NCBI GenBank assembly: GCA_963828465.1
Contig: CAWHEU010000022.1
Location: 224,001-288,000, forward strand
Direction: 5' to 3'
Length of the DNA stretch: 64,000 nt
Source of the DNA: an uncultured Acidobacteriota bacterium
Lineage (GTDB): Bacteria; Actinomycetota; Acidimicrobiia; Spongiisociales; ZC4RG35
The translations under genes were made by a program, and so were the position numbers. This document shows, in pieces, positions 8,112 to 26,837 of the stretch. The notes below the pieces were generated by a model. That model was given only the letters and a program-made list of their open reading frames with translations. It was not told the DNA's origin and did not search any database. The number at the start of each line of letters is the position of its first letter. Position 1 is the stretch's first letter.

Positions 8112-9745
8112 CCCTCCGAACGCGCTGGCTGGGTCGGCTGCCCTACACGGAAGCGTGGGACCTGCAGCGCGCCATACACGAGGGCAAGGTCGTCGGCCGG
8201 ACCAAAGACGACTATCTGCTCCTCATGGAGCACCCGCCGGTGTTCACGATCGGGCGCAACGGCGACGGCTCGAACCTCCTCGTCGACCGGGTTGGCCTCG
8301 GGGTCGAGGTGCATCACGTGGATCGCGGTGGTGACATCACCTTCCACGGTCCCGGTCAGCTCGTGGGCTACCCGATCCTGACTCTCGATGACCCCAAGCA
8401 GATCGTCCCTTACGTCCGCCGGCTGGAACAGACCTTGATCGAGACCCTGGCCGAGTTCGGCGTGGAGGCCTGGGCCGAGCCGGGATACACGGGCGTGTGG
8501 ACGGGGAAGGGGAAGGTTGCCGCCATCGGCGTCAGGGTGGCTCGCCGGGTGACGATGCATGGGTTCGCCCTCAACCTCCACCCCGACCTCGCCTATTTCG
8601 GGATGATGAACCCGTGTGGCATATCGGATCGTCCGGTCACGACGCTGTCGGAGTTGGTGGGGCGAAAGGTGACGCTCGAGGAGGCCACCGAGGTTCTGAT
8701 TCCTCGCTTCGAGCGGGTGTTCGGTCATGAGGAATCGGAGACCCAACTGGGTGCCTTCGCCCGCGGACAGGGCCGGCGCTCTGAGTTTGAGGTCGATCGG
8801 CTGGTCGAGGCGGGCACTTTTAGTCAGGAGAAGCGGACAGCCGAGCCGATCCTCATCAACGGGCGGCTACCCGGGGAGCCGCCCAGGCCGGATTGGATGA
8901 AGGTGACGGCGCGACTCGACGGCGACTACCTGGAGCTGAAGAAGATGATGCGCGGGCTCCAGCTCAACACGGTTTGTGAGGAGGCCAACTGCCCCAACAT
9001 CTACGAGTGCTGGGGGATGGGCACAGCGACCCTGATGATTCTCGGGGACAAGTGCACCCGTGCCTGTGGGTTCTGCAACGTGACCACCGGCAAACCGACC
9101 GAGTTCGACATCTTCGAGCCGTTTCGAGCAGCGGAGGCGATCCACCAGATGAATCTCAAGCACGCCGTCATCACATCGGTCAATCGTGATGACCTCGACG
9201 ACGGCGGGGCCGGGATATTTGCCCAAACCATCATCGAGAGCCGGCGGCGATCGCCCGGAACAGAGATCGAGGTTTTGATCCCCGACTTCAAGGGCGACCG
9301 TGAGGCGTTGCAGACGGTGATGGATGCCGTGCCCGAGGTGCTGAACCACAACACCGAGACGGTGCTCCGGCTGCAGCGCGACATCCGGACATCGGCCAGC
9401 TACGGGCGGTCGCTGTCTCTCCTCTGGAGGGCTAAGCAAATGAACCCCGACGGGCTCACCAAGTCAGGGCTGATCGTGGGGATGGGGGAGACACGTGAGG
9501 AGGTCTTGGGTGCCTTGGCCGACATGCGTGCGGTGGGCATCGACATCATCACCATCGGCCAATACCTCCGGCCCACCTCCCGGCATCGCCCGATCCACCG
9601 CTACGTCCACCCCGACGAGTTCACCGAATACAAGGCTCATGGCGAGGGTCTGGGCATCCCCCATATCGAATCCGGGCCCCTTGTTCGCTCCAGCTATCAC
9701 GCCAAGGAGAGCCGGGAGGCGGTCCCGGTGAGCATCGGTTGCTGA
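8108..9745 (+). CDS. lipA: Fused octanoyltransferase LipB and lipoyl synthase LipA
   Basis: N-terminal LipB motifs ([41 protein letters not shown]) and C-terminal LipA motifs ([24 protein letters not shown]) are in one uninterrupted ORF. Confidence 0.9.
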
Positions 9746-9759
9746 AGGCGGTCGGCATC

Positions 9760-10914
9760 TCATGGCCAGATGAGATCGACACCACCTGAATCGATCAGCC
9801 GCTGAACGTCATCGGCCAGTTGGCCGGAATGGATGAGCGTCTCCAGATGTCGTCCCGGGCACAACGTGGCGGCGTGGTCCCCATGGCCGGAGATCGTGTT
9901 CGGGGTCACGTCGTATCGCTCCGACGCCCAGGCCAGTACCGACTTCAACGACGCCAGTTGCGCCGCCGTCGGTTGCTCCACCTCGAAATTGCCCTCTACG
10001 ACGACGAGGAGGTGACCCGTCGTGTCATATGGGGTGCCCGTGTCTCCTCGAAAGGCAGGGTCACGACCTTCGTAGATTCGTCCGTCGACGCCCACGACGA
10101 TGTGATAGGCGAGATCCGGCCATCCCTGACCGTTCATGTGCCAGTCCTGCCAACCCCGTATCTGGCCCGGCCCGGTGACGCCTGCTTGGGTCCCGGCGTG
10201 ATGGATGGTCAGACGATCGATGGTGTGAGGCGTCATCTCGGCAAGACGCGGCGCTACGGCGCCCCAACCCTCACGCGAGACGACTGTCAGAGGCGGGTCG
10301 GTTCGCGGTGGCGGACGGTTGGGAGCTAGACCAAGGGCACGAGTGAGAAACGTCGCCATCTGACCCCTGGTGATCAGAGCGCTCGGGCAGAAGCGATCGT
10401 TCACAGGAGGGTTGCAACCAACGGTGATACCAGCCAGGGCAACGCGGTCGATGGCGCTTTCGAAGATGCTCCCGTCGTCATCGACGAAGTGATCGCCGCG
10501 TGAGGCGGGGAGAGCAAATGCTCGCACCATCATCGCTGCCATCTCGCCCCTGGTCATCGGCCTGTCGGGACAGAAGCGATTTTTCACTGGTGGGTTGCAT
10601 CCGACCGTGATCCCAGCCGCCGCGATGCTGTTGATGGAACGCTCGAACACATCACCCGAGTCGTCGGTGAAGAAGTCTTCTCCGCTGTCGGCTAGCTGCC
10701 GGGCGCGAGAGATGAATGCAGCCATCTGCCCTCTGGTGACCGAGGAGTCGGGGCAGAACCGGTCATTCGCAGGTGGATTGCAGCCGGTGGTGATCCCGAC
10801 GGCGGCGATGGCTTCGATGCCGCCCTCGTGAGTATCCCCGTCATCATCTGTGAAGCTCCCGCCTGGCGGAAGGACGAGGAGCATCACCGAAACAGCCATC
10901 GCAGGGAGGCGCAT
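9760..10914 (-). CDS. Secreted SLH-like repeat protein with C-terminal N-acetylmuramoyl-L-alanine amidase (PGRP/Amidase_2-like)
   Basis: Three GCNPPxxxxFCP..TRG(Q/E)MA repeats, then IHHAG, WPDLAYH and GHGDHAATLCPG with the Zn ligands present. Confidence 0.85.
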   Translation of the reverse strand: MRLPAMAVSVMLLVLPPGGSFTDDDGDTHEGGIEAIAAVGITTGCNPPANDRFCPDSSVTRGQMAAFISRARQLADSGEDFFTDDSGDVFERSINSIAAAGITVGCNPPVKNRFCPDRPMTRGEMAAMMVRAFALPASRGDHFVDDDGSIFESAIDRVALAGITVGCNPPVNDRFCPSALITRGQMATFLTRALGLAPNRPPPRTDPPLTVVSREGWGAVAPRLAEMTPHTIDRLTIHHAGTQAGVTGPGQIRGWQDWHMNGQGWPDLAYHIVVGVDGRIYEGRDPAFRGDTGTPYDTTGHLLVVVEGNFEVEQPTAAQLASLKSVLAWASERYDVTPNTISGHGDHAATLCPGRHLETLIHSGQLADDVQRLIDSGGVDLIWP

Positions 10915-10925
10915 TCCAGCGATGC

Positions 10926-12327
10926 TCAGTCCTGCTCCTCCGGCGGTTTCACCGGCGGGTCACCTGGCGGCGGGTAGGACGGAGGCGATGGCGCTGATGC
11001 CTGGCCGAGAGGTTGCATGAGATCGTCGACACGGACGAAGAAAGCGGATGCCTCGCCTCGTGTCAATCTCCGATCCGGGCAGAATGAGTCCGGCCCACAC
11101 CCCTTGGTGATCCCGGCTTCGGCGAAAGCATCGATAGCCGATTCGGCCCAGTGTCGATTGTCGTCCGAGAAGGCATCGGGAACATCACGGGAGAGCCCCA
11201 GCGCCCTGACTGTCATCGCAGCGAACTCGGCACGAGTCAGAAGCCTGTCCGGGCAGAACGCCCTTGGGGCGCAGCCCGTGACGATGCCTTCGGCAGCGAG
11301 TCGGTTGATCGCATTCTGGAACGTGCTGTTCCCATCGTCTCTGAAGAAGTCCTTCGAGGTCGCAGGAAGGCCCATCACACGATGGAAGAAGGCGGCCGCC
11401 TCACCCCTGGTGATGGTTCGGTCAGGGCAGGCCAGGCGGTACCCGCATCCGAAAAGGAGCCCTCGGGCATGCAATTCGGTGAGGGCGGGCCTGAAGAGGC
11501 TCGAGTTGTCGTCCGTGAACGGGTCCATGCAGCCGACGCGGCCATGCGTCGACACCGCCACCTGATCCACTACCAGTGAGAGGCGATTCGGGGACGGCCA
11601 GTCTCCACCGAAGTAGACGTTGTGCCACATGTGGCGGATCCTGATGTTCGCATCGCCGGGGAACCGGTATGCGATGCCCTGCTCGTTGAATCTGAGCTTC
11701 CCGTCGAGCCAGCCGTCAAAGGATCCATTGCTGAGGGATGGGGCGTTCAGCTTGACGTGCCCCTCGATGCAATGCCAACGACCCTGCTCCAGTGAAGCCC
11801 CAGGCCACCAGAGATGCTCACCGCAGTCGCCCGGCTGATTTGCGTGATAGAGGTAGGTCCCGATCGGGATCCGGCCTCCGGGCACTCCTTCGGTTCCCGG
11901 GCTGCCGAATAGTCCTCGCGCGGACCAGCCGGGCGAGCCCCCGGTTGGTGGGATGCAACCCCGTCCGGATGACGAATAGAGGCCGGCCAGCCCGGGGAGC
12001 TTGCCGACGAAGGCGGCGTTCCAACTCAACAAGCGGATGTGATACCGATACCAGGCTTCCGTCGGTGCCGGCGCGAGCCTGTCGAGCGGGCCGAGGCCGC
12101 GGAACCCTCCCTCGGGAATGACGACCTCCAGGCCATTGCCTGCGAAGCCACCGTTCGTGATGCTGGTGCGGGACAGGTCGAGGGACCGGACGTCCACCAT
12201 GCCCTCGGTCCATGTGTCATCTTCGAAGCCCGTTTTCGACAATGATCTCCCCGGCTGCCGGGAGGGGCCCACCCAGGGCCAGGGCCACAACAACGGTGAC
12301 GAGCAGAGGGCCCGCTCTTCGGCTCAT
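10926..12327 (-). CDS. Secreted polysaccharide-lyase-like (PL14-type) protein with SLH-like repeats; frameshift near 12230
   Basis: Signal peptide MSRRAGPLLVTVVVALAL from ATG 12327. Motifs GKLPGL, GWSAR, YLYH, GRWHCIE...NG...WLDG and YFGG, then three SLH-like repeats. Confidence 0.7.
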
Positions 12328-12432
12328 CGGGTCACCGTAGCTGCGATGGGTTTTATTGAACACCCTCAGTGGGTGGCGACCACGCGATGAGAGGTGGGCG
12401 CAAATCCAATGTTCCGATAGTCTGGCGGCCTC

Positions 12433-13716
12433 ATGCTGCGCAGGGTCCTCTCCGTCTTCCTCATGGCGCTGTTGCTCGTGCCGTTGGTCCCGGCGGGATC
12501 AGCCCTGGCCCAGGAGCAAACGACGTTCACCCCGGAGGGGGAGCTCGCCACTTACTCGACGAGTGTGGCCCGGCTCCAGGAAGCCCTAAAGGACAAGAAG
12601 TTTTACCGCGGCTCCATAGACGGTATCTACGGTGCGCAGACCCAGCAGGCGGTGATGGCCTTCCGCAAGGAGATCGGAGCGAGCCGCTCGTTCTCCTGGA
12701 GCGATTCGCACTGGGACGATCTCGAGCTCTACCAGGCCCCCTACACCAGGTTCGACGAGCCCGATCGGGTGGAGGTCAACCTGGACAAGCAGACCGCGCA
12801 CCTGTACCGCGGTGGGGCTCTGGTGGCCACGTTCCCGATCTCCTCGGGCAACGGTGAGACCTATCACGACAATGCCGGGAACCTGAAGCGGGCGGTGACC
12901 CCCACCGGCGACTTCGAGATCTACCGCCATGCCTCCGGTTGGTACGAGTCGACACTCGGTCTCGGGATGATGCTGAGCCCGTGGTTTTTCAACGGCGGCA
13001 TAGCCCTCCACGGGTCCCTCTCGGTGCCATCCGGGCCTGCATCACACGGGTGCATTCGCCTCACCACCTGGGACAGCGGTTTCCTCGACAGGTACGCATT
13101 CAGGGGGATGCCGGTCCACGTTTATTACGCCGACGATTCACCCGTCTATGGCAGCGACGGGCCTTTCGCAGACGTCCCGGCGAGCCACACCTTCGTGGCC
13201 GCTATCCAGTGGATGGTCGACACCGGCACCACCGACGGCTGCAGTCTCTATTTCTTCTGCCCCGACGCACCGGCGAGCCGCGGTCAGATCGCTGCCTTCA
13301 TGAGGCGGATATTGGGGCCGCATCTGGGGAATGGCCCGCCGGCGGAGTTCGCCGACACCGAGGGTCATCCGTTCGAGCGGGCAGTGGAATGGATGGCGGG
13401 CCTCGAGATAACCAAGGGTTGCAACCCGCCCGACAACACCTTGTTCTGCCCTGACCGGTCTGTGACTCGAGGTGAGATGGCCGCCATGTTCATGAGAGCG
13501 GGCGAGGAGTTGTTGGGGGTGAGCTCGGACAACGTGAACCTCGATCGCTTCCGCGACACCCGGGGTCACAACTTCCAGAAGGCTGCCGCCTGGATGGCGT
13601 CAGCCGGCGTCAGCCTCGGGTGCAACCCGCCGACCAATGATCAGTACTGCCCGGACACCAAGGTGACCCGAGCCCAGCTCTCCGCTTTCCTGAAGCGGAT
13701 CGTGGATCAGCTCTGA
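12433..13716 (+). CDS. L,D-transpeptidase with peptidoglycan-binding domain and SLH-like repeats
   Basis: Signal peptide, PG-binding motif IDGIYGAQTQQAV, YkuD motif ALHG...SHGCIRL and three SLH-like repeats. Confidence 0.9.
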   Translation: MLRRVLSVFLMALLLVPLVPAGSALAQEQTTFTPEGELATYSTSVARLQEALKDKKFYRGSIDGIYGAQTQQAVMAFRKEIGASRSFSWSDSHWDDLELYQAPYTRFDEPDRVEVNLDKQTAHLYRGGALVATFPISSGNGETYHDNAGNLKRAVTPTGDFEIYRHASGWYESTLGLGMMLSPWFFNGGIALHGSLSVPSGPASHGCIRLTTWDSGFLDRYAFRGMPVHVYYADDSPVYGSDGPFADVPASHTFVAAIQWMVDTGTTDGCSLYFFCPDAPASRGQIAAFMRRILGPHLGNGPPAEFADTEGHPFERAVEWMAGLEITKGCNPPDNTLFCPDRSVTRGEMAAMFMRAGEELLGVSSDNVNLDRFRDTRGHNFQKAAAWMASAGVSLGCNPPTNDQYCPDTKVTRAQLSAFLKRIVDQL

Positions 13717-14881: not shown

Positions 14882-16968
14882 TCAGAGGTCGAGGGCGCGT
14901 GTCAGGAAGGCCGCCATCTGGCCGCGAGTGACAGGCTGATCGGGGCAGAACTTCGTGTTGGCCGGCGGGTTGCAACCCAAGGTGACCCCAGCGGTGGCAA
15001 GTCGGTCGATCGCCGACTCGAAAACGCTTCGGTTGTCGTCGCTGAAGTGATTGCCGCCCCCGTCGTTGGTGTATCCCAGAGCCCGCACCAGGAAGGCCGC
15101 CATCTGGCCCCGAGTGACCGGCCGATCGGGGCAGTACTTCGTGTTGGCCGGCGGGTTGCAACCCAGCGTGACTGATGCGGTTGCCAGTCGGTCGATGGCG
15201 GCTTCGAAGACATGCCCGTTGTCATCCGTGAACTGGTCGCCGCCTCCGTCGTCGGTGTATCCCAAGGCGCGGACCAGGAAGGCCGCCATCTGGCCTCTGG
15301 TCACCGCATCCTTGGGGCAGAACGCGTCATTGAACGGCGGGTTGCACCCACGGGTGATCCCCGATGCTCCCAAGCGCTCGATGGCAGCGGTGAAGACGCT
15401 GTCGTCGTCGTCGAAAAAGAGACCATTGAAGGCGAGGGGCAACGGGTCGTCACAACTCTGATCGGGGCGGGCGAACCAGCGGGTGGGAGGGGCGTCGGTC
15501 GGTGTATTGCCGACGTGGACGACCAGCGACCCACTCGCCACTGAACACCTCGATATCTGCCCGGCCGTCACCGTCGTAATCGGCGGCGCCCAGCCCGCGA
15601 ACTTCATTGGCCGGGATCTCGACGTCGAATGACTGGTCCAGGGTCAGCCCGCCGCCCTGCAGATTCAGGACGTCGATTCTCGAACCCGAACTGTCGGGGT
15701 AGAGGGCGAACAACTCCGGAGTGGTTCCTCCGTCACGGTCGCCGGCCGCGATGTGAATCGGTGTACCACCTGGCATTGTTGCGTTTCTCAAGACGGTGCT
15801 GAGCCCGGGTCCTTTGAGAACGCGGAGAGTGCCACCCGGCCCTGCTTCCCAAACGTCGGCCCTGCGGTCACCGTCGAGATCTGCTCCGGCGAGGGCGACA
15901 TGATTTGGGTCGATGCCGGTGGAGAGGTTGGAGATGTCCTCGAAGCCGGAGGACACGCGACGCGACGGATGCAGTCACCGTCGAGCCAGTGTTGAACGCC
16001 ACGAGGTCCTGTCCGCTGTCAGCGTCGAGGTCCATGAACAGGATCCGGTCCGACCCAGCTATCGAAGCGTCGGGAAGGAACCACCGGTTCACCGAGCATT
16101 CCCCAAAGAGCATGGTTCCGGAGGCCACATCGATGACCGTGCCACCAGGATGGGCCCTGACGCCGGCCACGTCCGGTGCACCCTTGCCGGTCACGTCGGC
16201 GATGGTGAGCCGATATCGGTCGGTCACGGATGTGAACTCGGTGCGGTAGGTGGCAGCCGCCGATGCGAAAGGCCGTTTCGAAGTGACCGGAGGGAGGGGG
16301 GTCAGCGGGGATTCCGGGCCGCTGCCCGGGCCCATCCACGAAAAATGCATCGGGTCTTTGCTGAAGACCCAATCACCTCCCCAGCAGAATCCAGCGTCAC
16401 GCCATACGTCGACGTACCAGCCTGGCATGTTGGTGATCAGTCTGTTGTCGTCGCGCTGCGGGTTCTGCGCCGGATTGATGTCCACGGCGAGCCCGAGGCC
16501 GTGACGCGAGATCTGAGTGCTGCCGGCGATGGTGCGAGAGGTGAATCCGGACACGCTCCTGACCGTGTACGTATTTCCTTGCGCCGCCTGGGCCGCCAGG
16601 CCAGCGCTGACCCGACGGAAGGCGGGGAGTGCGAGACGGTGGACGCTCACCACTCTTCCCCCGCTGCCGGGCACCACCCATGGCGCGAGGTTGGCTCTGA
16701 CCTGTCCAATCGTTCTCCCGAAGTACGTGCCGAAGGGGCCGAGCACCGGCTCTGCAGAAGACAATCCTCCGGACTTGGAGGAATAGGGCGTCCTGGCAAA
16801 AGGGGCACCGCAACTCGCTGCCTCCGAGAAGCTGTTCCAGCGGGTCGATGTGTCGGATGATGGCTCTCCAGGCAGAGCCGGGACCATCACCAGGCCGAGG
16901 ATGATGCTGAGGGCGGCGAGCCCCGTCCTTCGCGATGCTGCGGAGGGCACCGATTCATGATGTCGCAT
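14882..16968 (-). CDS. Secreted M15-family Zn peptidase with FG-GAP-like repeats and three SLH-like repeats; two frameshifts (~15955, ~15540)
   Basis: M15 motifs SRHGLGLAVDINP and WGGDW..DPMHF; repeats ADVTGKG, DLDADSG, ADLDGDR and ADYDGDG; C-terminal SLH-like repeats. Assembled from three overlapping ORFs. Confidence 0.75.
14900..15430 (-). repeat. Intragenic 186-bp-period tandem repeat encoding SLH-like units
   Basis: CAGGAAGGCCGCCATCTGGCC recurs at 14903, 15089 and 15275. Confidence 0.85.
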
Positions 16969-16993
16969 CTGGCGCCCTATGCGATCTGGCTGC

Positions 16994-18007
16994 TCAGTCG
17001 GATGCAGTGACCCGGGCTGTCGTCTCCTGCACGACAACGCCCGCCCATCGCCATACAGCGACCAACGTGTGGGTCCCGCCGGAGAACGTCATCGTCGACA
17101 CCCACGCCCGCTCGGCGATCGAGCCGTTGGTCCGGAGAGGGCGCGCCGACATCGACACCGGGTTCCCATCGAGGGTGAGGCGGAAACTGGTGTCGCCCGA
17201 CGTGAAGGCGGCCTCCTCCCCTGATCGATATGGGAGCACCTGAAACAGCCCTTCGTCGATGCGGTATTTGGTCCCGGCCCCGACGACGAGGCTGAGGGTG
17301 CAACGGCCACCGCCCCGGGAACAGGCCGAGCGATTCCACTCCGACAGCGGGACGACGATCCCGGGTATGGGGAGCTCGAGTGCCCGACGAACGAACCCGG
17401 CGCTCTGGGCCCTGGTCAAACGATCGTTGGGGCAATACCGATCGTTGGTCGGTGGATTGCAACCGAAGGTCCACCCCTGAGCGGCTACCCGGTTTATGGC
17501 GCCCTCGAGGACATGGCCGTCGTCGTCGACGAACCGGTCGCTGCTCGTTTCGGGCAGTTCGTAGGCGCGGGCCAGAAATGCGGCGAACTCGGCGCGTGTC
17601 AGCCCTCGGTTGGGGCAGAAGTTCGTGTTGGCCGGAGGGTTACACCCAAGCGTGATCTCCGCTTCGGCCAGGCGATTGATGGCGCCCTCGAGGGCATGCC
17701 CGTTGTCGTCGTCAAAGAAATCGTCGTCGCTCTCGGGCAGGTTCAGCGCCCTGGCGACGAAGGCAGCGGCCTGGGCCCGAGTCATGGTGTCGTCGGGGCA
17801 ATAGCGATTGTTCGTCGGGGGATTGCATCCGAAGGTGATGCCGGCATTGGCGATCGCCTCGATCCCGTTCTCCAACGGGTGCCCGTTGTCGTCGGTGAAG
17901 CGGCCACTGACGGTGAGGGCTTCGGCGCGGCCCGGGAAGAGGGTCATAACGATGGCAACCAGCGCCACCACGGTCACAGAGACGAGGACCCTTCTCCGGG
18001 CGATCAT
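16994..18007 (-). CDS. Secreted SLH-like repeat protein with C-terminal beta-rich domain of unknown function
   Basis: Signal peptide ending in AEA, three GCNPPxNxxxCP..TRA(Q/E) repeats and a C-terminal domain with a CSRGGGRC pair. Confidence 0.85.
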   Translation of the reverse strand: MIARRRVLVSVTVVALVAIVMTLFPGRAEALTVSGRFTDDNGHPLENGIEAIANAGITFGCNPPTNNRYCPDDTMTRAQAAAFVARALNLPESDDDFFDDDNGHALEGAINRLAEAEITLGCNPPANTNFCPNRGLTRAEFAAFLARAYELPETSSDRFVDDDGHVLEGAINRVAAQGWTFGCNPPTNDRYCPNDRLTRAQSAGFVRRALELPIPGIVVPLSEWNRSACSRGGGRCTLSLVVGAGTKYRIDEGLFQVLPYRSGEEAAFTSGDTSFRLTLDGNPVSMSARPLRTNGSIAERAWVSTMTFSGGTHTLVAVWRWAGVVVQETTARVTASD

Positions 18008-18462
18008 TCGATCTCCAGCGTCTCGAGCACGGCGTTCACGCTGGGAAGGATGTCTGCGCGATCGACGTGGGAGCCGAGGACGACGTAGAGACAGAAGGCG
18101 CGACCATTCTGGGTGAAGAATCGCTGCAGACCGGACTGGCCCGGCATCGCACGTTGCAGCGCGTTGCGATCGAACTCGCGGGCCGCGAGCTGACGGGGTA
18201 TCCCCTCGGCTTCGAACAGAGGTGTTCCGGCACTCTCCGGGCCGTATTCGAAAAGAGTCATGAACACATCGGTGCCATTCATCAGCTCCACCGCACCGGT
18301 GCCGAATGAACCGCGTTCGGGGGGCAGCGGGAAGGAGGCCAAGTGCATGACGGTCGGCTCCACGGCGCCGTCGGATTGGAGTTGGAAGTCGCCCCCCGAG
18401 ATCGAACCTTCCCAGTCGTCAGGGACCTCGACTGCGATCCCGCTGCGGGTCAATTGAGGCAA
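18004..18462 (-). CDS. Hypothetical protein in the mau-like operon
   Basis: TTG start at 18462 directly after the MauD-like stop: (M)PQLTRSGIAVEVPDDWEG...QRFFTQNGRAFCLYVVLG. ATGA overlap with the next gene. Confidence 0.7.
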   Translation of the reverse strand: MPQLTRSGIAVEVPDDWEGSISGGDFQLQSDGAVEPTVMHLASFPLPPERGSFGTGAVELMNGTDVFMTLFEYGPESAGTPLFEAEGIPRQLAAREFDRNALQRAMPGQSGLQRFFTQNGRAFCLYVVLGSHVDRADILPSVNAVLETLEIE

Positions 18463-18463
18463 C

Positions 18464-19165
18464 TCAGGATCCCTTCTCGAGCGGGTTCGAGTAGAGCGAC
18501 GGGTCGCCTGGCTCGATGCCGGCCTGACGGAGTTGCTGATCGGTGAATTCCTCGCGGCCGGACGGGTCGAGGCGGACCGGCACCGCATCGCGAGCAGACT
18601 GGCGGAGGAGCCCGAGAAGGTGCCGCCAGCTCGAGGCGGCGCCCTCGCCGATGACCATCCCCTGGCCGTCGACGAGGAGGAAATATGGGGTCATCGGGAC
18701 CCGGAACGTCTCCCAGGTCTCGTCCGACATGATCAAAGGGACCCGAGGTGGCGCCATGTCGACCAACTTGGCTGCCGATTCGGACCCAGGGCCTTTGGTG
18801 ACGATCACAGTCCGCGTGTCGGGCATGGGCAACTCGAAATCGCCCTGAAACTCGGTCCAGAACGTCTGGCAACTCAGGCAGCCCGAGGAGAGGAACGCCA
18901 CCAAAGTGTTGCCCCGGCCGTGGACCAGGCTCATGCTCTGATCGGCGCCATCGAGCCCTACCCCACGCAGCGTGTTGGATGGGGCCTTCTCGAAACCTGT
19001 GGTCTTGGGTCTGGTCTGGGGCGTCCCCACCGTGACCGCCCCCTCCTCGGTTACGCCGAGCGCGGCGAGTTGTCGGAGGATCTCGGCATGGCTCTTGAGC
19101 AGTCCGGCGACGAGGATGGCGAGGAGGATGATCACCACGCCTTCGATGATGACAATCGCCGTCAT
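18464..19165 (-). CDS. Membrane-anchored thioredoxin-like protein (MauD-like)
   Basis: N-terminal TM followed by HAEILRQL, LVAFLSSGCLSC (CxxC) and the cis-Pro loop FRVPMTPYFLLVDGQG. Confidence 0.7.
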   Translation of the reverse strand: MTAIVIIEGVVIILLAILVAGLLKSHAEILRQLAALGVTEEGAVTVGTPQTRPKTTGFEKAPSNTLRGVGLDGADQSMSLVHGRGNTLVAFLSSGCLSCQTFWTEFQGDFELPMPDTRTVIVTKGPGSESAAKLVDMAPPRVPLIMSDETWETFRVPMTPYFLLVDGQGMVIGEGAASSWRHLLGLLRQSARDAVPVRLDPSGREEFTDQQLRQAGIEPGDPSLYSNPLEKGS

Positions 19166-20482
19166 CAGGCGTTCCGTCCCCAGGTCAACGGGAAACCATT
19201 CCCGCCGAAGGTGAAGGTGGTGGACGCAGTTGACCCGATATTGCGAATCGTCCACGTGCCGGCGTTGAACCAGCCGACCCCGGCGCGGCCATCGCCGTCC
19301 CAGTCGCCGGTGACAGGCCTGCCGTTGCCGGCGAGGGTGAAGTCGCGGTCCGCTGGGCCGGCTGACACCGCGTTGCGCAGGATCCACCGGTCCCCTCGCA
19401 CGACGCCGATCCCGGTGTGGCCGTCACCGTTCCAGTCCCCGACCACGGGGATGTCGCCTGGTTGGCCGAATACGAAGTCGATGTCGGGTTCTCCCGCACG
19501 GTTCGAATTGCGCAGCAGCCATCTGTTGCCCCGCACCACTCCGATCGTGTGGACGCCGTTGCCGTTCCAGTCCCCGACGACCGGGATGTCGCCCGGTCTC
19601 CCGTACTCGATCACGAGATTGGGGCTGCCCGGGCCTTCCACTTGACGGAGGAACCAGACGAGGTTGCCGACACCGGCCACGCCATGACGGGTGTTGCGCA
19701 CCATCCCGATGGTCCTCACCCCGGCGTTCGAGAAGTCCCCGGCTACCGGGTAGTCCCCTGGTAGGCCGAAGTCGAAGGTCTGGTTGGCTCCTCCACTGCT
19801 CAATGCATTGCGTAGCTGGAACGTGGTGCCGCTGACGACAGCCGGCCGGGCGCGGTAAGGGCCCTTGGGGGTGGTGTCGGGGAGCAGTCCTGCGGCGTTG
19901 TGGCTGTATGTCGACTGGGACACGGCGCTCGTTGTGGTGCAGGTCGAGTCCCATTCCCAGGGAGGAACGCAGGTGACCACCCGACAGGTGATAGGCCCGA
20001 TGCAAGGGAGGTCGTTGTTGCACTGGCCGTAACGGAACCGGGTGCAGCACACCTTGCGTTCGCTGCAATTGTCGTGGTTGCACTGGCAGTTGCAGTTCAC
20101 GCACGAGTCGGAGCAGGTGCCCGAGCCGCCGCAGCTGCATCCACCGCAATCCGCCGCGTTGCAGTCCATGTAGTAGCGACTCCGACCGTCGCAGAAGGTG
20201 TTGCCTTCGGCCCGCCACCATCCGGCGACCACGTTCCCGGGTGGGCAGGTGTTGACCCCGTGGATGTTGCAGCAGAAATCGGTCCAGCCATCGTTGCATC
20301 TGGCCCCGCCGCCGCATTGGCTCGGCACGACGGCGCCGTAGGCGCTGCCTGGACGAAGGATGTAGGCGGCCGGCGCCGCGACAAGAGCGGTGCCGACCAT
20401 GGCCGCACGGCGGAGGAAGCCGCGGCGCGAGCGTGCGGGTGTCGAGAGCGCGGCTCGCGGCGGCGACGAGTCGCGTGCTCAT
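19165..20482 (-). CDS. Tat-exported Cys-rich protein resembling the amine dehydrogenase light chain (MauA-like), fused to FG-GAP-like repeats; frameshift near 20431
   Basis: Removing one base gives MSTRLVAAASRALDTRT-SRRGFLRRAAMVGTALV (Tat consensus). About 23 Cys follow, including NTCPPG...GWW...YYMDC, then repeats of GDxPVVGDWNGxG. Confidence 0.6.
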
Positions 20483-20989
20483 TCGGTCCGGGTCAAGGCC
20501 ATGGTTTGAGGTAGGCGGGATAGGAGGAGGTAGGCAAGGTAGACCCCGATGGCGACAAAGACGACATAGGCGATGAGGGTCGACATGGAGTCATCGGTCG
20601 GAATGACGGCTGTCCCGGTGATCGCAACGACACCGAGGGCGATCAGACTGACGACATTGAAGCCGAAATGGAACCAGGACGGAGGGGTGTCCTCCCGCCC
20701 GAAACAGCCGCAACTCTGGATGGGAAGGTCGGCCCGCAGGGCCAGCCACGTAAATGCGGCGAACCCCGCATAGAGCACCACGGCCGCCCGTTACCCAAGG
20801 CCCACCCAGGATCAAACCGACTACCGAAACCGCCACCTCGACAAGCCCCAAGATCCGGACGACAGATTTCGACGAGGGGAGGCGAGCAGCGCGCAAGGCG
20901 CCGACGGTTGGGACTGGATCCGCCATCTTGGCCATCCCGGCCAACCCGAGCAGGCCGAGAGCTATGGCGGCGACGGCTGCGGCGACCAC
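20479..20989 (-). CDS. MauE/DoxX family membrane protein; frameshift near 20785
   Basis: Motifs LAGMAK, LGLVEVA and the MauE hallmark SCGCFG; several TM helices. Confidence 0.85.
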
Positions 20990-21075
20990 GAGGCGAGAGT
21001 AGTGCTGATGCTCTGGATCGCCGGAATCCCCCCGAAAGTATGTCTACCCGCCTCGGGAGCTTTACCATTTCTCCG

Positions 21076-21984
21076 GTGTCAGCATCACAATCGAGCCATC
21101 TCCGCGCCCTCGAATCGGAGTCGATTCACATCATCCGCGAAGCTGTCGCCGAATCGGAGAACCCTGTTCTCCTCTTCTCCGGGGGCAAGGACTCCGCCCT
21201 CGTCCTGCGACTCGCTGTAAAGGCGTTCTGGCCTGCGCGTCTTCCCTTCCCGGTCATGCACGTCGATACCGGGCACAACTTCGATGAGGTGCTCGAGTTC
21301 AGGGATCGGATCGTGACCGAGCTCGAGGCCGATCTCATCGTCGCTTCGGTCCAGGAGGCCATCGACCAAGGCCGGGTGGTCGAAGAAACCGGGCCCCGGG
21401 CTTCCCGGAACCGTCTTCAGACCGAGACCCTCCTCAACGCGATCGACAAGCATCGTTTCGACGTGGTCTTCGGTGGGGCGCGCCGTGACGAGGAGAAAGC
21501 TCGGGCGAAGGAGCGGGTGTTCTCGTTCCGGGACGAGTTCGGCCAATGGGACCCCAAGAGCCAGAGGCCTGAGCTCTGGTCCCTCTACAACGGACGGCAT
21601 CGCAAGGGCGAGCACATGCGGGTCTTCCCGATCTCGAACTGGACGGAGATGGACGTCTGGCAGTACATCGAAGATGAGGGGATCGAGTTGCCTTCGGTCT
21701 ATTTCTCGCATCGCCGGCGTGTCTTCGAGCGGGACGGGATGCTCATGGCCGAGTCGCCCTATCTCAATCTCATCGACGGCGAGGAGGTGTTCGAGGCCAT
21801 CGTGCGGTTCCGGACCGTGGGAGACATGACCTGCACCGGTGGGTTCGAGTCCACCGCCTCGTCAGTCGGGGAGATCATCGAGGAGGTGGCCGTCACACGG
21901 ATCACCGAGCGTGGCGCCAGCCGTGCCGACGATCGAACCGCCGAGGCCGCCATGGAGGATCGGAAGCGGGAGGGCTACTTCTGA
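21076..21984 (+). CDS. cysD: Sulfate adenylyltransferase subunit 2
   Basis: Motifs LESESIHIIRE, FSGGKDS, GARRDEEKARAKER and MEDRKREGYF. Start placed at GTG 21076. Confidence 0.96.
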   Translation: MSASQSSHLRALESESIHIIREAVAESENPVLLFSGGKDSALVLRLAVKAFWPARLPFPVMHVDTGHNFDEVLEFRDRIVTELEADLIVASVQEAIDQGRVVEETGPRASRNRLQTETLLNAIDKHRFDVVFGGARRDEEKARAKERVFSFRDEFGQWDPKSQRPELWSLYNGRHRKGEHMRVFPISNWTEMDVWQYIEDEGIELPSVYFSHRRRVFERDGMLMAESPYLNLIDGEEVFEAIVRFRTVGDMTCTGGFESTASSVGEIIEEVAVTRITERGASRADDRTAEAAMEDRKREGYF

Positions 21985-23243
21985 TGACCGAACTGGTGCG
22001 CATCGCAACCACCGGGTCTGTCGACGACGGAAAGAGCACCCTGATCGGTCGGCTCCTCTTCGACTCCAAGCAGATCTTCCAGGACCAGCTCGAGGCGGTG
22101 GAGGACGCCAGCCGCAAGCGCGGCACCGACTACGTCGACCTGGCCCTGCTCACCGATGGCCTCCGCGCCGAGCGGGAGCAAGGGATCACCATCGATGTCG
22201 CCTATCGCTATTTCGCGACACCGAAGCGAAAGTTCGTCCTGGCCGACACCCCCGGTCACATCCAGTACACACGGAACATGGTCACCGGGTCATCGACGGC
22301 GAACATCGCTCTAATCCTGGTGGATGCAAGGCAGGGCATCCTCGAGCAGACCAGACGTCACTCCTTTCTCGCCTCTCTCCTGGGCGTCCCCCATCTGGTG
22401 TTGTGCGTCAACAAGATGGACCTCGTCGACTGGTCCCAGGAGCGCTTCGACGAGCTGGTCGACGAGTTCCGTCAGTTCGCCAACCGACTCGAAATACACG
22501 ATCTGCGGTTCGTGCCGGTGTCGGCCCTCGAGGGTGACAATGTGGTGAACCAGTCGCTGAACATGCCCTGGTACCACGGCCCGACTGTCCTCGAGTTGCT
22601 CGAGGACATTCACATCGGCAGCGATCAGAACATGATCGATGTGAGATTCCCGATCCAGTACGTCATCCGGCCCCATCGGCGGGAGTACCAGGATTTCAGG
22701 GGCTACGCCGGCAAGATCGCCGGAGGGCTGATCAAAAGGGGCGACGAGGTAATGGTCCTTCCCAGCGGCTTCACGACCACGATCCGCTCGATCGAGACCT
22801 TTGACGGACCGCTGGAAGAGGCGGCGCCTCCCAGCTCGGTGGTGATCACCCTCGATGACGACATCGACGTATCGCGGGGGGACATGTTGTGCCGACCACA
22901 CAATCAGCCTCACGCCTCTCAGGACATCGACGCCATGGTGGCCTGGATGTCGGATGGGCCTCCACTGAGGGTCGGCGCCAAATACGCCATCAAGCACACG
23001 ACACGTTGGGGGAAGGCCATGGTGCGGGACTTTCAATACCGCCTCGACGTCAACACCCTGCATCGTGACGAGTCATCGGATTCGCTCGGCTTGAACGAGA
23101 TCGGTCGGGTCAGGCTCCGCTCCACCACGCCTTTCTTCTTCGACGAGTACCGCCGCAATCGTGAGACGGGTTCATTCGTACTCGTCGACGAATCGAGCAA
23201 CGTCACGGTGGGGGCGGGGATGATCACCGGTGAGGGGTCGTGA
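21984..23243 (+). CDS. cysN: Sulfate adenylyltransferase subunit 1 (GTPase)
   Basis: Motifs [28 protein letters not shown] and NKMD. Confidence 0.96.
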
Positions 23244-23833
23244 GCGAGAACGTTGTCTGGCATCGCGGGTCGGTGACGCCACCGGATCGGGCGGAGGCGA
23301 CCGGCGGCGAGGGCGTGACCGTGTGGATGACGGGTCTCTCGGGCAGCGGGAAGTCGACAATCGCCTACTCGGCCGAGATGATGCTGGTACAGGCCGGCCG
23401 GGCCGCCTATGTCCTCGACGGGGACAACCTGCGTCACGGCCTCAATTCCGATCTCGGGTTCGCGGCGGCGGACCGCAGCGAGAACGTGAGACGGGTGGGT
23501 GAGGTGGCTCGCCTCATGGCTGATGCAGGTCTCGTCGTGTTGGTCCCTGTCATCTCACCGTTCGCCTCAGACCGGAAGATGGTGCGCGAGGCACATGAGG
23601 AGGCAGGACTGGCCTTTGTCGAAGTGTTCGTCGACGCCTCGCTCGAGGTATGCGAACGGCGAGATCCCAAGGGCCTCTACGCCCGTGCACGTGCCGGCGA
23701 GATCGAAGACATGACCGGGATCGATTCCCCCTACGAGGCACCCGAGAGTCCGGATCTGAGACTGGATTCCGAAGGCACCTCAGCGGAGAAACTGGCCGCT
23801 CAAATCGTCGAGGCGGTAGGCACCGGATCATGA
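23240..23833 (+). CDS. cysC: Adenylyl-sulfate kinase
   Basis: Motifs [19 protein letters not shown] and RDPKGLY. Confidence 0.96.
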
Positions 23834-24648
23834 CCACGACAACCTCGCCCGTCTATTACGCCCGCCGTTTCAACCAATACGTGGCCGAGCTGTGGCGGCG
23901 GAGAGACTTTGTCTGGTTCTTCGCCCGGGGCAACATCAAGGCCCGCAACGCCTCGACCTTCCTCGGCCTGGTGTGGTGGGTCCTCAACCCGCTTCTTCTC
24001 GGTCTGGTCTATTTCTTCATCTTCGGGCTCATCTTTCCAAGCGAGCGCGACATCGCCTACCTGCTCTCGGGGATGTTCGTGTTCCACTACAGCAGTCAGT
24101 CCCTGAGCGGCGGTGCGGCCTCGATCCTCTCGAACTCGAAGCTCTTGGTCAACATCAGGTTTCCCCGCCTCATCCTGCCCATCGCCTTCCTCCTCGAGTC
24201 GACCTTCGGATTCCTCGCCTCCCTGGTGGTGTTCTACGCCATCGCCATCCCATTCGCCGGCGTCGTCCCGGGGCCGGAGATCCTGATGCTGCTCGTAGCC
24301 CTCCCGCTTCAGATCCTGTTCAACCTCGGTTTGGCTGCGGCCACCGCCAGGCTCGCTGTCCCGTTCCGCGACATCAACAATCTGATCCCCTACCTCAACA
24401 GGATCTGGCTCTACACGTCGCCGATCATCTGGCCGCTCAGCATGCTCACGAGCATGTCTGAGACGGTCCAGAGCCTGTTCCGGCTCAATCCGATGTTCCC
24501 CATCATCGCCCTGTACCGGACCGCACTGCTCGGATACCCGCTGGAGAGCGCCGACCTGATTGCGGCGGTGATCTGGTGCGTCCTGGCTGGGGTCGTCGGC
24601 ATCGCCATGTTCATCAAGTACGAGGGCCGGATGGTTAGGTACTTGTGA
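23830..24648 (+). CDS. ABC-2 polysaccharide export permease (Wzm/TagG-like)
   Basis: Motifs [22 protein letters not shown] and LNP; ATGA overlap with cysC. Confidence 0.9.
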
Positions 24649-25413
24649 GCCGGCCTGCCCTCAAGGTGGAGAATGTCTCCGTTCGTTTTCGCCCTTACGT
24701 CGATCGACGCCCGACCCTTCGTCGTTCTCTGGCGACGTTCCGTCACAAGGAGACCCAGCTCGTCGAGGCCCTGAAGTCGGTCTCGTTCGAAGTGCAGAGG
24801 GGTGAGGCCTTTGGCATCGTCGGGCAGAACGGTGCCGGCAAGAGCACCCTGCTTCGTGTCATGGCTCGGACCTTGCGGCCTGATGACGGTCGGGTGGTGG
24901 TCCGGGGGCGGATGTCCACTCTCCTCCAGCTCGGAGTTGGCTTCAACGCCGAGCTGTCCGGCAGCCGAAACATCTACCTCGGTGGCCTCGTGGCAGGGCT
25001 GACCAAGAAGCAGGTCGACGAGCGTTACGACGAGATCGTCGAGTACTCCGAGCTGGGAGAGGCGATCTACCGGCCGATGAAGACCTACTCGTCGGGGATG
25101 TTCTCGAGACTGGCGTTTGCCGTGGCGATGCATCTCGATCCGGAGATCCTCCTCCTCGATGAGGTCCTCGCCGTCGGAGACGAGGGCTTCAAGGAGAAGA
25201 GCATGGCCACCATGAACGAGCTGTTGAGCAAGTCGGGCAGCATTGTCTTCGTGAGCCACGCTGTCCGCCAGCTGGCGGAGTTCTGCGACCGAGCCGCATG
25301 GCTCGACCAGGGCGAGACTCGTGGCCATCGGCGACGCCGAAGACGTGGTCGAACAGTATCGGGCATTCGTCCAGCAGCGGCGGAAAGAGATGAGGGCGCA
25401 GGGCTTGGCGTGA
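24645..25413 (+). CDS. ABC polysaccharide export ATPase (Wzt/TagH-like); one-base frameshift near 25316
   Basis: Motifs GQNGAGKST, YSSGM, LLLDE and VSH. Shifting frame after DQG restores LVAIGDAEDVVEQYRAF...GLA* with the stop at 25411-25413. Confidence 0.88.
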
Positions 25414-26837
25414 CCGTCGATACGGGTGCCGAGGGAGATCCGGCCAACACAGGCGAGGAGCTAGTTGTTCCGGGACCGGTGCTCGACCAGTCGTCGCTGT
25501 CCCATGACGTTCCCGAGGACAAACACTCATTCGACGTCGAGACGGTTCGGGACCAGCATCGGGAGGACTTAGTAAGGCTGCGCGGGGAGCTGATGAAGAG
25601 GGTCCTGGCCCTGCAGGTGAGCCGACAACAGCTCGCCGATCGGCTGCAGGAGCAGATTGCCATGACCAAGGCCCTCGAGCGTTCACTCCGACAGGCACAA
25701 CGGCAGATACAGTCGATCTACGAGAGCCGGACATGGCGAGTCGGGAGCGCGGTCCGGAGAGTATTTCGACCACTGGCACCCAATTCGGATCCGCCCGGCA
25801 TCGCAGTGCCGGAGGTGGTGTCCATGGAGCCCGTCGAGGGTCTCTCGCCGTTCATCGAGGCCTTGCCCGCCATCGATCCCCATCCCCTTGCGACCGAATA
25901 CGGTGCCGAGCTCGACTCGCGACGAGTAATGGACCGATCCGGCATCGGCTTCGCTGTGTCGACGGCCAGTTTCGGCGAGGGCCGTGGCGATCTCTTCGTC
26001 GCGACCGGTCTGGGCCGGTATCTACGCCGCCGCGGGTACGAACCGTCGTACGTCCCGCTAGAGGATTGGCATGAGGCATCCGGCCTCAAATGGTTGGTGG
26101 CAATGTTGCCCGGCTTCAGACCCTCTGTTCTTAGCGCCGAGTCGAACGTCGTCGGCTGGGCGCGGAATGCCTTCGATGACTGGCTTGCCCACCCTGAGCT
26201 GGAGAGGTTCCGGTTGTTGCTCACCTCGTCTCCTCGATTCGCCGAAGCTGCTGGAAAGGTCTACTCGGGAGACATCCACCTCCTGCCCATCGGCGTCGAC
26301 CTCGAGCTCTTCGAACCACCCGCCACTCGACCTCCATCACGCGTCAGTGTCGTCACGACTACCAATCAATGGGGAGGGGAGCGTGACCTATATCGAGCAC
26401 TCAGGTCGTCGCCAGTGAACTTCCCCCTCCATATCTACGGTCAGCCCGCAGGGCTGTCGCCTGAGCTCCACGCTCACTATCTCGGCCCGGTCGACTACTT
26501 CGAGCTTCCGGGCATCTACTGGCGAGCACGCGTTGTGCTGGATGACTCCCATCCCGCCGTGATCGGGTGGGGATCGGTGAACAGCCGTATCTTCGATGCC
26601 CTTGCTGCCGGCGCCCTACCAGTGACCAACGCCGAGGATGGGCTGGAACAGCTAGGGCTTTCGGACGTCCCTACCTACTCCGAGCCCTCGCAGCTGAACG
26701 AGATCGTCACCGACCTTTTGGCCAATGATCAGGCAACGCGAGATCTCATCGACCGTCTTCGAGCCGTTGTCACGGAGCGTCACTCAATGGAGGCGCGGTC
26801 GCAGCGGCTGGAAGAGATACTGACCGAGACGCGCTGA
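25410..26837 (+). CDS. Coiled-coil plus CgeB-like (GT-B) glycosyltransferase
   Basis: GTG 25410 overlaps the Wzt stop (GTGA). A coiled coil ends in YESRTWRVGSAVRR; the C-terminus has VNSRIFDALAAG and ERHSMEAR. Confidence 0.8.
   Translation: MTVDTGAEGDPANTGEELVVPGPVLDQSSLSHDVPEDKHSFDVETVRDQHREDLVRLRGELMKRVLALQVSRQQLADRLQEQIAMTKALERSLRQAQRQIQSIYESRTWRVGSAVRRVFRPLAPNSDPPGIAVPEVVSMEPVEGLSPFIEALPAIDPHPLATEYGAELDSRRVMDRSGIGFAVSTASFGEGRGDLFVATGLGRYLRRRGYEPSYVPLEDWHEASGLKWLVAMLPGFRPSVLSAESNVVGWARNAFDDWLAHPELERFRLLLTSSPRFAEAAGKVYSGDIHLLPIGVDLELFEPPATRPPSRVSVVTTTNQWGGERDLYRALRSSPVNFPLHIYGQPAGLSPELHAHYLGPVDYFELPGIYWRARVVLDDSHPAVIGWGSVNSRIFDALAAGALPVTNAEDGLEQLGLSDVPTYSEPSQLNEIVTDLLANDQATRDLIDRLRAVVTERHSMEARSQRLEEILTETR

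Follow-up and report, generated by a model that had tools for sequence, protein, structure and literature searches.

A conserved actinomycetotal gene cassette for a probable cell-wall-displayed, disulfide-rich protein with a MauA-like N-terminal domain

Positions 16994-20989 (minus strand) of the DNA analysed here, a 64,000-nt stretch of contig CAWHEU010000022.1 from an uncultured bacterium of the class Acidimicrobiia (hereafter the window), carry a compact gene cassette centered on a cysteine-rich protein that is predicted to leave the cell by twin-arginine translocation (Tat). The gene is accompanied by those for a MauE-like membrane protein, a MauD-like thioredoxin-fold protein, and a 152-aa protein without a signal peptide. 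We consider it probable, with moderate confidence, that this is the local copy of an Actinomycetota-wide cassette for a cell-wall-displayed protein whose disulfide-knotted N-terminal domain is homologous to MauA, the light chain of methylamine dehydrogenase (MADH). An initial annotation of the sequence had pictured a dedicated maturation and export system for a MauA-related, disulfide-rich surface protein, and several lines of evidence now favor that view, among them a gene neighborhood conserved in 29 of 29 loci, an alignment of whole precursors with MauA, and wall-binding C-termini in related proteins. The features of the locus are as follows.

20479..20989 (-): MauE-like membrane protein with a CGCFG motif, a predicted membrane thiol oxidase (PF07291 and CXC-FG motif)
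20344..20482 (-): extended Tat leader of the Cys-rich protein, with a conserved n-region, SRRGFLRR, and an h-region
19876..20343 (-): Cys-rich, putatively MauA-like domain with 23 Cys (AlphaFold2 [AF2], hhalign, Foldseek, and VIA-align)
19165..19875 (-): C-terminal GDxPVxGDWxGxG (FG-GAP/VCBS-like) repeat region of the Cys-rich protein, variable between lineages
18464..19165 (-): MauD-like thioredoxin-fold protein of 233 aa with an N-terminal membrane helix and CLSC (BLASTP against MauD)
18004..18462 (-): 152-aa signal-less protein with a TTG start; predicted to have a PsbP/Mog1/Tsi3-like fold and to bind the Cys-rich domain
16994..18007 (-): Sec-exported protein with three S-layer homology (SLH)-like repeats, each with a Cys pair (Pfam SLH)
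14882..17037 (-): M15_4 peptidase - FG-GAP - SLH gene, present here as three open reading frames (ORFs), downstream of the cassette (Pfam)

The five minus-strand genes had been described as translationally coupled, and both the placement and the couplings follow from the ORF coordinates and junctions. The MauE-like and Cys-rich genes meet in ATGA, the Cys-rich and MauD-like genes in TGATG (derived from ORF coordinates), and the 152-aa and SLH genes again in ATGA; a single nucleotide separates the MauD-like stop from the TTG start of the 152-aa gene, which has an AAGGGA-like site upstream. Including its leader, the whole Cys-rich gene spans 19165-20482 (-). The annotated 411-aa ORF holds exactly 23 Cys, all within residues 29-154, where about 23 had been estimated for a Tat substrate; reading it upstream in frame yields SRRGFLRRAAMVGTALVAAPAA, which contains a twin-arginine motif (SRRGFLRR) and a hydrophobic region. 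The RR pair is invariant in 48/48 precursors of the family, and [ST]RRxF[LIM] is present in 33/48.

The gene neighborhood was compared across 29 loci, 20 from within the class and nine strong matches from outside it. The Cys-rich, MauE-like, MauD-like, and 152-aa genes are adjacent in all 29, inside and outside the class, arranged either as E-Cys-D-152 or as D-152-(E)-Cys. Conservation across Acidimicrobiia, which the initial annotation had left to be checked, is complete among these loci, with the genes kept together in 20/20 within the class and 29/29 overall. The gene for the Cys-rich domain adjoins MauD-like and 152-aa homologues in all 20 class loci. MauE-like proteins were matched by phmmer in 16 of them, and a hydrophobic ORF with C-x-C-[FL]-G is found in 19, the twentieth having CGCIG as judged by eye. 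Outside the class, all four genes are present in 9/9 strong loci, and a weak match (L145) lacks the other genes.

The taxonomic spread of the cassette is broad. The Cys-rich domain occurs in 85/301 class genomes (49/135 genera) and the 152-aa family likewise in 85/301, with 83 genomes common to both; in the two genomes with the Cys-rich domain alone the match lies at a contig end, and in the two with the 152-aa family alone it is weak or partial. In the phylum sample, the domain was found in 32/401 genomes, 23 of them outside the class and one of those weak. These tallies include two unpublished genomes (G254 and G549) that contribute one positive each. The family comprises 403 clusters at 50% identity (E <=0.001), and among 598 pattern matches listed for contigs that represent each species by one genome, 574 code for a relative, which places the cassette in at least 574 species-level genomes. 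No Pfam or NCBIfam model matches the Cys-rich domain or the 152-aa protein, PADLOC left three proteins unmatched, and no description of the cassette was found in the literature, the search of which covered main texts without supplementary files.

The SLH gene stands apart from this core. It is translationally coupled to the operon in the window, and its product scores 36.5 bits with Pfam SLH (PF00395, cut-off 20.8, E 4.8e-9); a protein of this type lies directly downstream of the 152-aa gene in only 7/20 class loci (L028-L034), and in L041 the sole SLH match falls inside the Cys-rich ORF itself. The SLH gene is lineage-specific, following the cassette only in the family to which the window belongs, and the conserved unit is one of four to five genes from which it is excluded. 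The variable fifth member encodes a MauF-like membrane protein, which clustering of all ORFs placed in 22/29 loci, usually between the MauD-like and 152-aa genes. It matches DsbD_2 (PF13386, 26.7 bits against a cut-off of 24.9) and resembles Paracoccus denitrificans MauF by BLASTP (E 7e-5, 35% identity over 85 aa). Given this distribution and likeness, sequence comparison indicates that the ancestral cassette includes homologues of MauF, MauE, and MauD. No MauF-like protein or PF13386 match was found in the window at E up to 1, and the gene is likewise absent from L028, L029, L035, L040, and L045-L047. The genome's only MauF-like copy is encoded in trans on contig C24 (L004:605-1785; 38% identical, E 3e-29), where it adjoins a DoxX-family gene without CXC, away from the cassette.

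The relationship to MauA shows most clearly when entire precursors are compared. We compared 48 precursors of the Cys-rich family with 118 MauA precursors and with the P. denitrificans mau cluster (NC_008688.1, locus L131). Whole-precursor profiles align in hhalign with a probability of 96.8% (P 2.7e-10, score 69.0) over 114 collinear columns, which run from the leader n-region to the C-x-C motif that follows DC, and none of 60 full shuffles rose above 22.9. The likeness is spread over several blocks: taken alone, the 14 columns that precede TSRR yield P 9.3e-6, the complete leader signal P 1.3e-10, and the n-region plus mature part, after removal of the RR core and h-region, P 6.9e-5; the global mode of hhalign was uninformative. 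A hidden Markov model (HMM) of the MauA leader scored on 48/48 family leaders (best 24.1, median 16.1 bits), against 14.5 bits at most for the genome's 29,313 six-frame ORFs.

Residue by residue, a single local BLASTP alignment between the domain and MauA (13/35 identities, E 0.14) pairs the CPPG motifs of the two, sets the first W of GWW against W114, and aligns the D of YMDC with D133. Subtracting a 57-residue leader turns these precursor positions into what we take to be Trp57, which bears the quinone, and the catalytic Asp76, a numbering consistent with sequence P0270. Their equivalents are invariant in 86 family sequences, as are the wider motifs GWW, R, YxDC, FRYGQC, and CRVVTC. At the level of structure, the AF2 model of the domain is confident (predicted local distance difference test [pLDDT] 90.7, predicted template modelling [pTM] score 0.86), and the first 22 rows returned by Foldseek are all light chains of MADH or aromatic amine dehydrogenase (AADH), at E 1.4-4.5 and template modelling (TM) scores of 0.21-0.35, with none at E <=0.001. 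Light chains that carry tryptophan tryptophylquinone (TTQ) are the only chains to top both structure searches of the PDB. The comparison with MADH/AADH light chains suggested earlier favors a relationship for the precursor profiles; in structure, those light chains are the best PDB matches, though weak ones. We judge it likely that the Cys-rich precursor is a distant homologue of MauA, with a leader and N-terminal half that are recognizably MauA-like in sequence and a C-terminal half that appears to have diverged.

The resemblance extends to the neighborhood. The cassette protein shares with MauA and AauA a long Tat leader whose n-region, ahead of TSRR, is conserved, and an N-terminal arrangement of Cys that can be written C-x5-C..DG..CC..x7-CPPG(T/N)..W..Y.DC; and, as in the mauFBEDACJGMN cluster, homologues of MauE, MauD, and mostly MauF are encoded adjacent to the substrate gene. 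In contrast, the cassette lacks MauB, MauG, amicyanin, MauJ, MauM, and MauN; its domain has about 23 Cys where MauA has 12, is unmatched by PF02975, has no Trp108 equivalent that we could find, and is fused to cell-wall-binding or propeller-like C-termini. It also carries the 152-aa protein with a predicted PsbP fold, which is missing from mau clusters. A canonical MauA elsewhere in the genome was considered and rejected, the sole PF02975 match (E 0.16) being antisense to a sigma-factor-like ORF; and a PDB sequence search with the Cys-rich protein and its profile returned only a chance match to PfEMP1 and matches to the Tat signal of NosZ.

Across the family, variable Cys columns appear and disappear two at a time (6-12, 86-100, 77-81, 84-99, and 25-152; correlations 0.67-0.98), which is the behavior expected of disulfide partners. 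The odd count of 23 in the window may be explained by the missing column-152 partner of the Cys at column 25. In the C-terminal half, a Cys-rich insert of about 17 residues is variable and is missing in roughly 20% of the family. Alternatively, the cysteines could be cytoplasmic ligands of Cu, Zn, or Fe-S, a role that would account for the use of Tat and would make the 152-aa protein a metallochaperone or proofreading chaperone. We hold this to be highly improbable. Tat export, the CxC and CxxC runs, the odd number of Cys, and a signal-less partner predicted to bind the folded domain would all fit a metal or cluster carrier, but the paired gain and loss of Cys is that of disulfides, the cassette encodes thiol-disulfide enzymes rather than metal-handling proteins, and AF2 folds the domain confidently without a cofactor. 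Moreover, no copper-storage or ferredoxin family in Pfam or NCBIfam matched, and Csp-like and ferredoxin readings were dropped for that reason.

The C-terminal part of the protein varies from lineage to lineage. The repeats of the window (19165..19875) gave nothing beyond a weak FG-GAP_3 match (E 0.62). Among 86 relatives, the C-termini comprise LGFP (18), SLH (3), DUF4214 (3), CW_binding_2 (CWB2; 2), FG-GAP-type domains (2 and 1), and Tectonin (1). Because relatives bear wall-binding C-termini and the locus lies among SLH proteins and wall enzymes, the product would be a head displayed on the cell envelope.

The enzymes predicted to mature this head are the MauE-like and MauD-like proteins. 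The MauE-like protein had been recognized as a CGCFG membrane protein, and PF07291 agrees with the motif: against a cut-off of 27 bits, its score is 32.9 on the C-terminal half of the gene and 19.7 on the N-terminal half, and the genome search gave 34.8 bits. MauE proteins have been reported, in a 2026 bioRxiv preprint, to complement an Escherichia coli dsbB mutant and to have an active site made of a CXC motif followed by FG, and the same report finds MauA in only 10.2% of species with MauE (10.64898/2026.03.05.709764). According to a 2020 study, mauE and mauD homologues also sit in candidate clusters for peptides that are made by the ribosome and modified after translation (RiPPs) in Streptomyces, without other mau genes (PMC7794033). 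The preprint casts MauE as a general DsbB-like oxidase, whose presence alone would not imply a MauA-like substrate. The protein of the window shares with such enzymes PF07291, the CGCFG motif, and a thioredoxin-fold partner encoded beside it; it differs in that the predicted MauE is tied to one substrate gene in 29/29 loci. A DsbB homologue (E 6.2e-14) is encoded in the genome as well, and no VKOR was found there. The MauE-like gene is the only one of the CXC type found there; a second PF07291 match, on contig C24, was rejected as MauE because it is a DoxX-type protein without CXC. The DsbB homologue elsewhere, the sole CXC-type MauE, and its fixed linkage to the substrate gene together argue for a dedicated rather than a general role.

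The second enzyme was described as a membrane-anchored thioredoxin with CLSC, and the 233-aa protein indeed combines a hydrophobic N-terminal helix with that motif. It aligns with P. denitrificans MauD by BLASTP (26% identity over 104 aa, E 3e-7) so that CLSC lies on CPVC, and it scores 15.6 bits against the TIGR02661 equivalog, far under the cut-off of 188.6. The two proteins share an N-terminal design of MT, hydrophobic helix, and basic flank, and the N-terminus of the MauD-like protein is conserved in the family.

The 152-aa protein, called an unknown at the outset, matches no Pfam or NCBIfam model and no PDB sequence, and a search of the PDB with the family profile also gave nothing. MauJ was considered as a relative and rejected, as BLASTP finds no alignment. 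In 20/20 homologues there is no N-terminal hydrophobic stretch. Structure prediction suggests a likeness to the fold group of PsbP, Mog1, DUF1795 (Eag chaperones), Tsi3, and DcrB. When residues 1-205 of the intact precursor P0005, a 97%-identical homologue of the Cys-rich protein, were modelled together with the 152-aa protein of the window, three runs gave ipSAE scores of 0.88, 0.90, and 0.90, and the best of three controls gave 0.00. The ipSAE mark is reached by 58/80 solved complexes and 2/110 mismatched pairs; as the models here were built on our own alignments, this calibration applies only approximately. The runs agree in >=90% of contacts, with a pLDDT of 93 for the 152-aa partner. On the Cys-rich side, the predicted interface is formed by residues 146-159 (with the invariant FRYGQ, F149-Q153), W89 of GWW, and 182-191; on the other, by the conserved segments 49-56, 71-85, and 96-116. 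It involves the folded domain and not the leader.

These models make the 152-aa protein a likely binding partner of the Cys-rich domain, and it could act either as a Tat hitchhiker subunit or as an export chaperone. Were the predicted complex right, the domain would have to be folded by the time it is exported, in keeping with its use of Tat. Known precedents are the small and large subunits of hydrogenases and the proofreading chaperones of the TorD/DmsD family. As in those systems, an RR leader is present on one partner, and a signal-less partner encoded next to it is predicted to bind the folded cargo. Unlike known proofreading chaperones, the 152-aa protein has a predicted PsbP/Mog1/Tsi3-like fold that is not known among them and is predicted to bind the mature domain rather than the leader.

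Several observations weigh against the interpretation set out above. The generic Tat core accounts for approximately 30 of the 69 units of the hhalign score, and the mature domains alone align weakly (score 24.3, P 0.0026, probability 11.6%), a score reached by 0/150 column shuffles of the mature-domain profiles (mean 13.6, sd 2.7). Searches of HMM against sequence detected nothing between the Cys-rich family and MauA (<=4 bits), and PF02975 does not match the Cys-rich protein of the window at E up to 10. The structural similarity is far under usual significance (Foldseek E >=1.4, TM 0.21-0.35, Z <=2.4), and the amino-acid term of Foldseek may favor Cys-rich chains. Basic residues follow the helix in both the MauD-like protein and MauD, so sequence does not settle which face of the membrane the thioredoxin domain occupies. 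The complex is a model in which a 97%-identical homologue serves as chain 1. Finally, it is difficult to square the binding of a folded, disulfide-rich domain in the reducing cytoplasm with the formation of its disulfides by MauE outside that compartment.

Some of these points would suit a different explanation, in which the cassette is a private DsbB/DsbA-like folding module for an unrelated Cys-rich adhesin or structural protein of the surface and the likeness to MauA is convergence. In addition to the weak mature-domain and structural scores, this is favored by the generalist character of MauE, with MauA in just 10.2% of MauE species (10.64898/2026.03.05.709764), and by mauE/mauD homologues in unrelated Streptomyces clusters (PMC7794033). 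Against it, three collinear blocks align with MauA (n-region, Tat core, and a Cys framework with CPPGT, W, and DC), the MauA-leader HMM is specific, homologues of MauF, MauE, and MauD occur together, and TTQ light chains are the only PDB chains that top both structure searches. We therefore regard convergence as unlikely and retain a MauA-related domain as the better account of the Cys-rich protein.

Whether such a domain carries a quinone is a separate matter. The initial annotation had noted neither MauB nor MauG beside the cassette and proposed searching the genome for mauB and mauG; PF06433 and PF03150 gave none in the genome, which is 92% complete. For MauB (PF06433), the negative extends to the 301 class genomes, with a positive control at E 2.4e-212; for MauG (PF03150), nothing in the 92%-complete genome exceeded the cut-off (best E 0.86). 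In the provisional, greedy alignment, Trp108 lies opposite a variable residue before a Cys, in a low-confidence part, and the apparent lack of a Trp108 equivalent weakens the quinone option. Since no MauG, no Trp108 equivalent, and no conserved oxidase gene were found, canonical TTQ is unlikely, and the mature protein is most likely not a canonical TTQ enzyme.

A true quinoprotein could nonetheless carry a Trp-derived or Cys-Trp-type cofactor made without MauG, with the 152-aa protein in place of MauB as the subunit that shapes the active site; the product would then act, anchored to the cell wall, as a dehydrogenase or oxidase of amines or other substrates. Consistent with this, an invariant Trp, an invariant Asp, and a mostly-Asp position align with TTQ Trp57, Asp76, and Asp32, respectively, and the WW motif borders the surface predicted to contact the 152-aa protein. 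In MADH, TTQ is located at the interface of light and heavy chains. On the other hand, the residue opposite Trp108 is variable in that low-confidence part of the alignment; the genome yielded no MauG-type di-haem peroxidase; and the 29 neighborhoods share no conserved oxidase, radical S-adenosylmethionine (SAM), or flavoprotein gene and no nearby electron acceptor such as amicyanin. We give the quinoprotein little weight. Quite unlikely, too, is its more specific form, a two-subunit relative of the TTQ dehydrogenases in which a wall-anchored, MauA-like catalytic domain and a 152-aa PsbP-fold subunit would be co-exported via Tat and the cofactor would form without MauG; it would imply that the disulfide-rich domain folds, and is perhaps oxidized, before translocation.

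The reading frames of the window are interrupted by single extra bases at ~20783, ~20432, ~15953, and ~15537 relative to the closest relatives, L048 (97% DNA identity) and L049 (90%). The first splits the MauE-like gene and the second breaks the leader frame of the Cys-rich gene, which upstream has no start codon, the ATG at 20482 lying in a different frame; the other two split the M15_4 peptidase - FG-GAP - SLH gene into three ORFs, a gene that is one continuous ORF in L028. The initial annotation had called for the indels to be corrected, and those of the MauE-like and Cys-rich genes are now located and are absent from L048 and L049. Where the frame is intact, homologues of the Cys-rich protein run to 438 aa and share 97% identity with it. 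A G run upstream of the MauE-like gene (~21033, intergenic) also differs, with GGGGGG in the window and GGGGG in L048.

Contigs of four other metagenome runs (X1-X4), which derive from relatives 90-99% alike and not from the window's own sample, provide a further comparison; the best sequencing run contained <=0.25 of the sampled words of the window. At 15537, 15953, and 20782, these contigs have one base fewer. The base at 20782 is missing at full depth in X1, X3, and X4 and at 19.2 of 25.7 in X2; at 20431/20432, it is missing at full depth in X4 and at most of the depth in X1 and X2, with X3 uncovered. The four frameshifts are most likely assembly errors.

If they were instead real, the MauE-like, Cys-rich, and M15-SLH genes would be broken and the strain would be losing its cassette. 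Such decay would agree with the density of the changes (four single-base insertions in ~5.3 kb, 15537 to 20783, relative to L048 and L049), with the fact that none of them lies within a long homopolymer, and with a MauF-like gene already gone from the cassette. It is very unlikely all the same: all four are +1 insertions peculiar to this assembly, the contigs of the four other runs have one base fewer (at 20431/20432 in all three covering runs), the frames are otherwise fully open and 97% identical to intact homologues, and the close relatives L028 and L029 are intact even though they also lack the MauF-like gene.

The wider neighborhood is rich in cell-envelope genes. Within the surrounding 30 kb, three adjacent SLH proteins (9760-13716) carry domains for remodelling the wall, namely amidase_2, polysaccharide lyase 14, and L,D-transpeptidase YkuD plus PG_binding_1, and the region also codes for CysD, CysN, and CysC, an ABC-2 exporter, and glycosyltransferases. 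The SLH-like repeats in 16994-18007 and 14882-15607 (-) each have a conserved Cys pair in the pattern GCNPP..x..[YF]CP, with 8 Cys per ORF, and these wall-binding repeats would thus also need disulfide formation. Divergent from the cassette, 20668-23833 (+) and 23650-26837 (+) encode CysD, CysN, and CysC for the synthesis of 3'-phosphoadenosine-5'-phosphosulfate (PAPS), followed by an ABC-2 permease and an ATP-binding cassette (ABC) ATPase fused to a glycosyltransferase-like domain; a sulfated cell-wall glycopolymer could be made beside the SLH proteins. Elsewhere in the window, a 545-aa ORF at 8108-9745 (+) joins LplA-B_cat to lipoyl synthase (LIAS_N plus radical SAM), either as a LipB-LipA fusion or as two genes joined by an assembly indel.

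Taken together, we propose a model for the cassette in which the 152-aa PsbP-fold protein would bind the invariant FRYGQ/WW face of the folded Cys-rich domain in the cytoplasm and would then be exported with it by Tat as a hitchhiker or be released as an export chaperone. The MauE-like protein would serve as a DsbB-type oxidase and, with the MauD-like thioredoxin, would form and shuffle ~11 disulfides, and the MauF-like protein, in trans here, would supply reducing power. The C-terminal repeats would hold the head at the cell envelope.

Overall, the cassette links homologues of MauF, MauE, and MauD and a MauA-type leader to a substrate without a heavy chain or MauG, and it thereby represents a natural experiment on the roles of MauE, MauD, MauF, and the long MauA leader. 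Should the predicted complex hold, the 152-aa protein and the Cys-rich domain would be candidates for a Tat pair of a new kind, hitchhiker or chaperone, based on a PsbP-like fold, and a two-subunit dehydrogenase relative, were it real, would bear on the old question of why MauA uses Tat. Likewise, if the conserved Trp is modified, the family would constitute a new class of surface quinoprotein.

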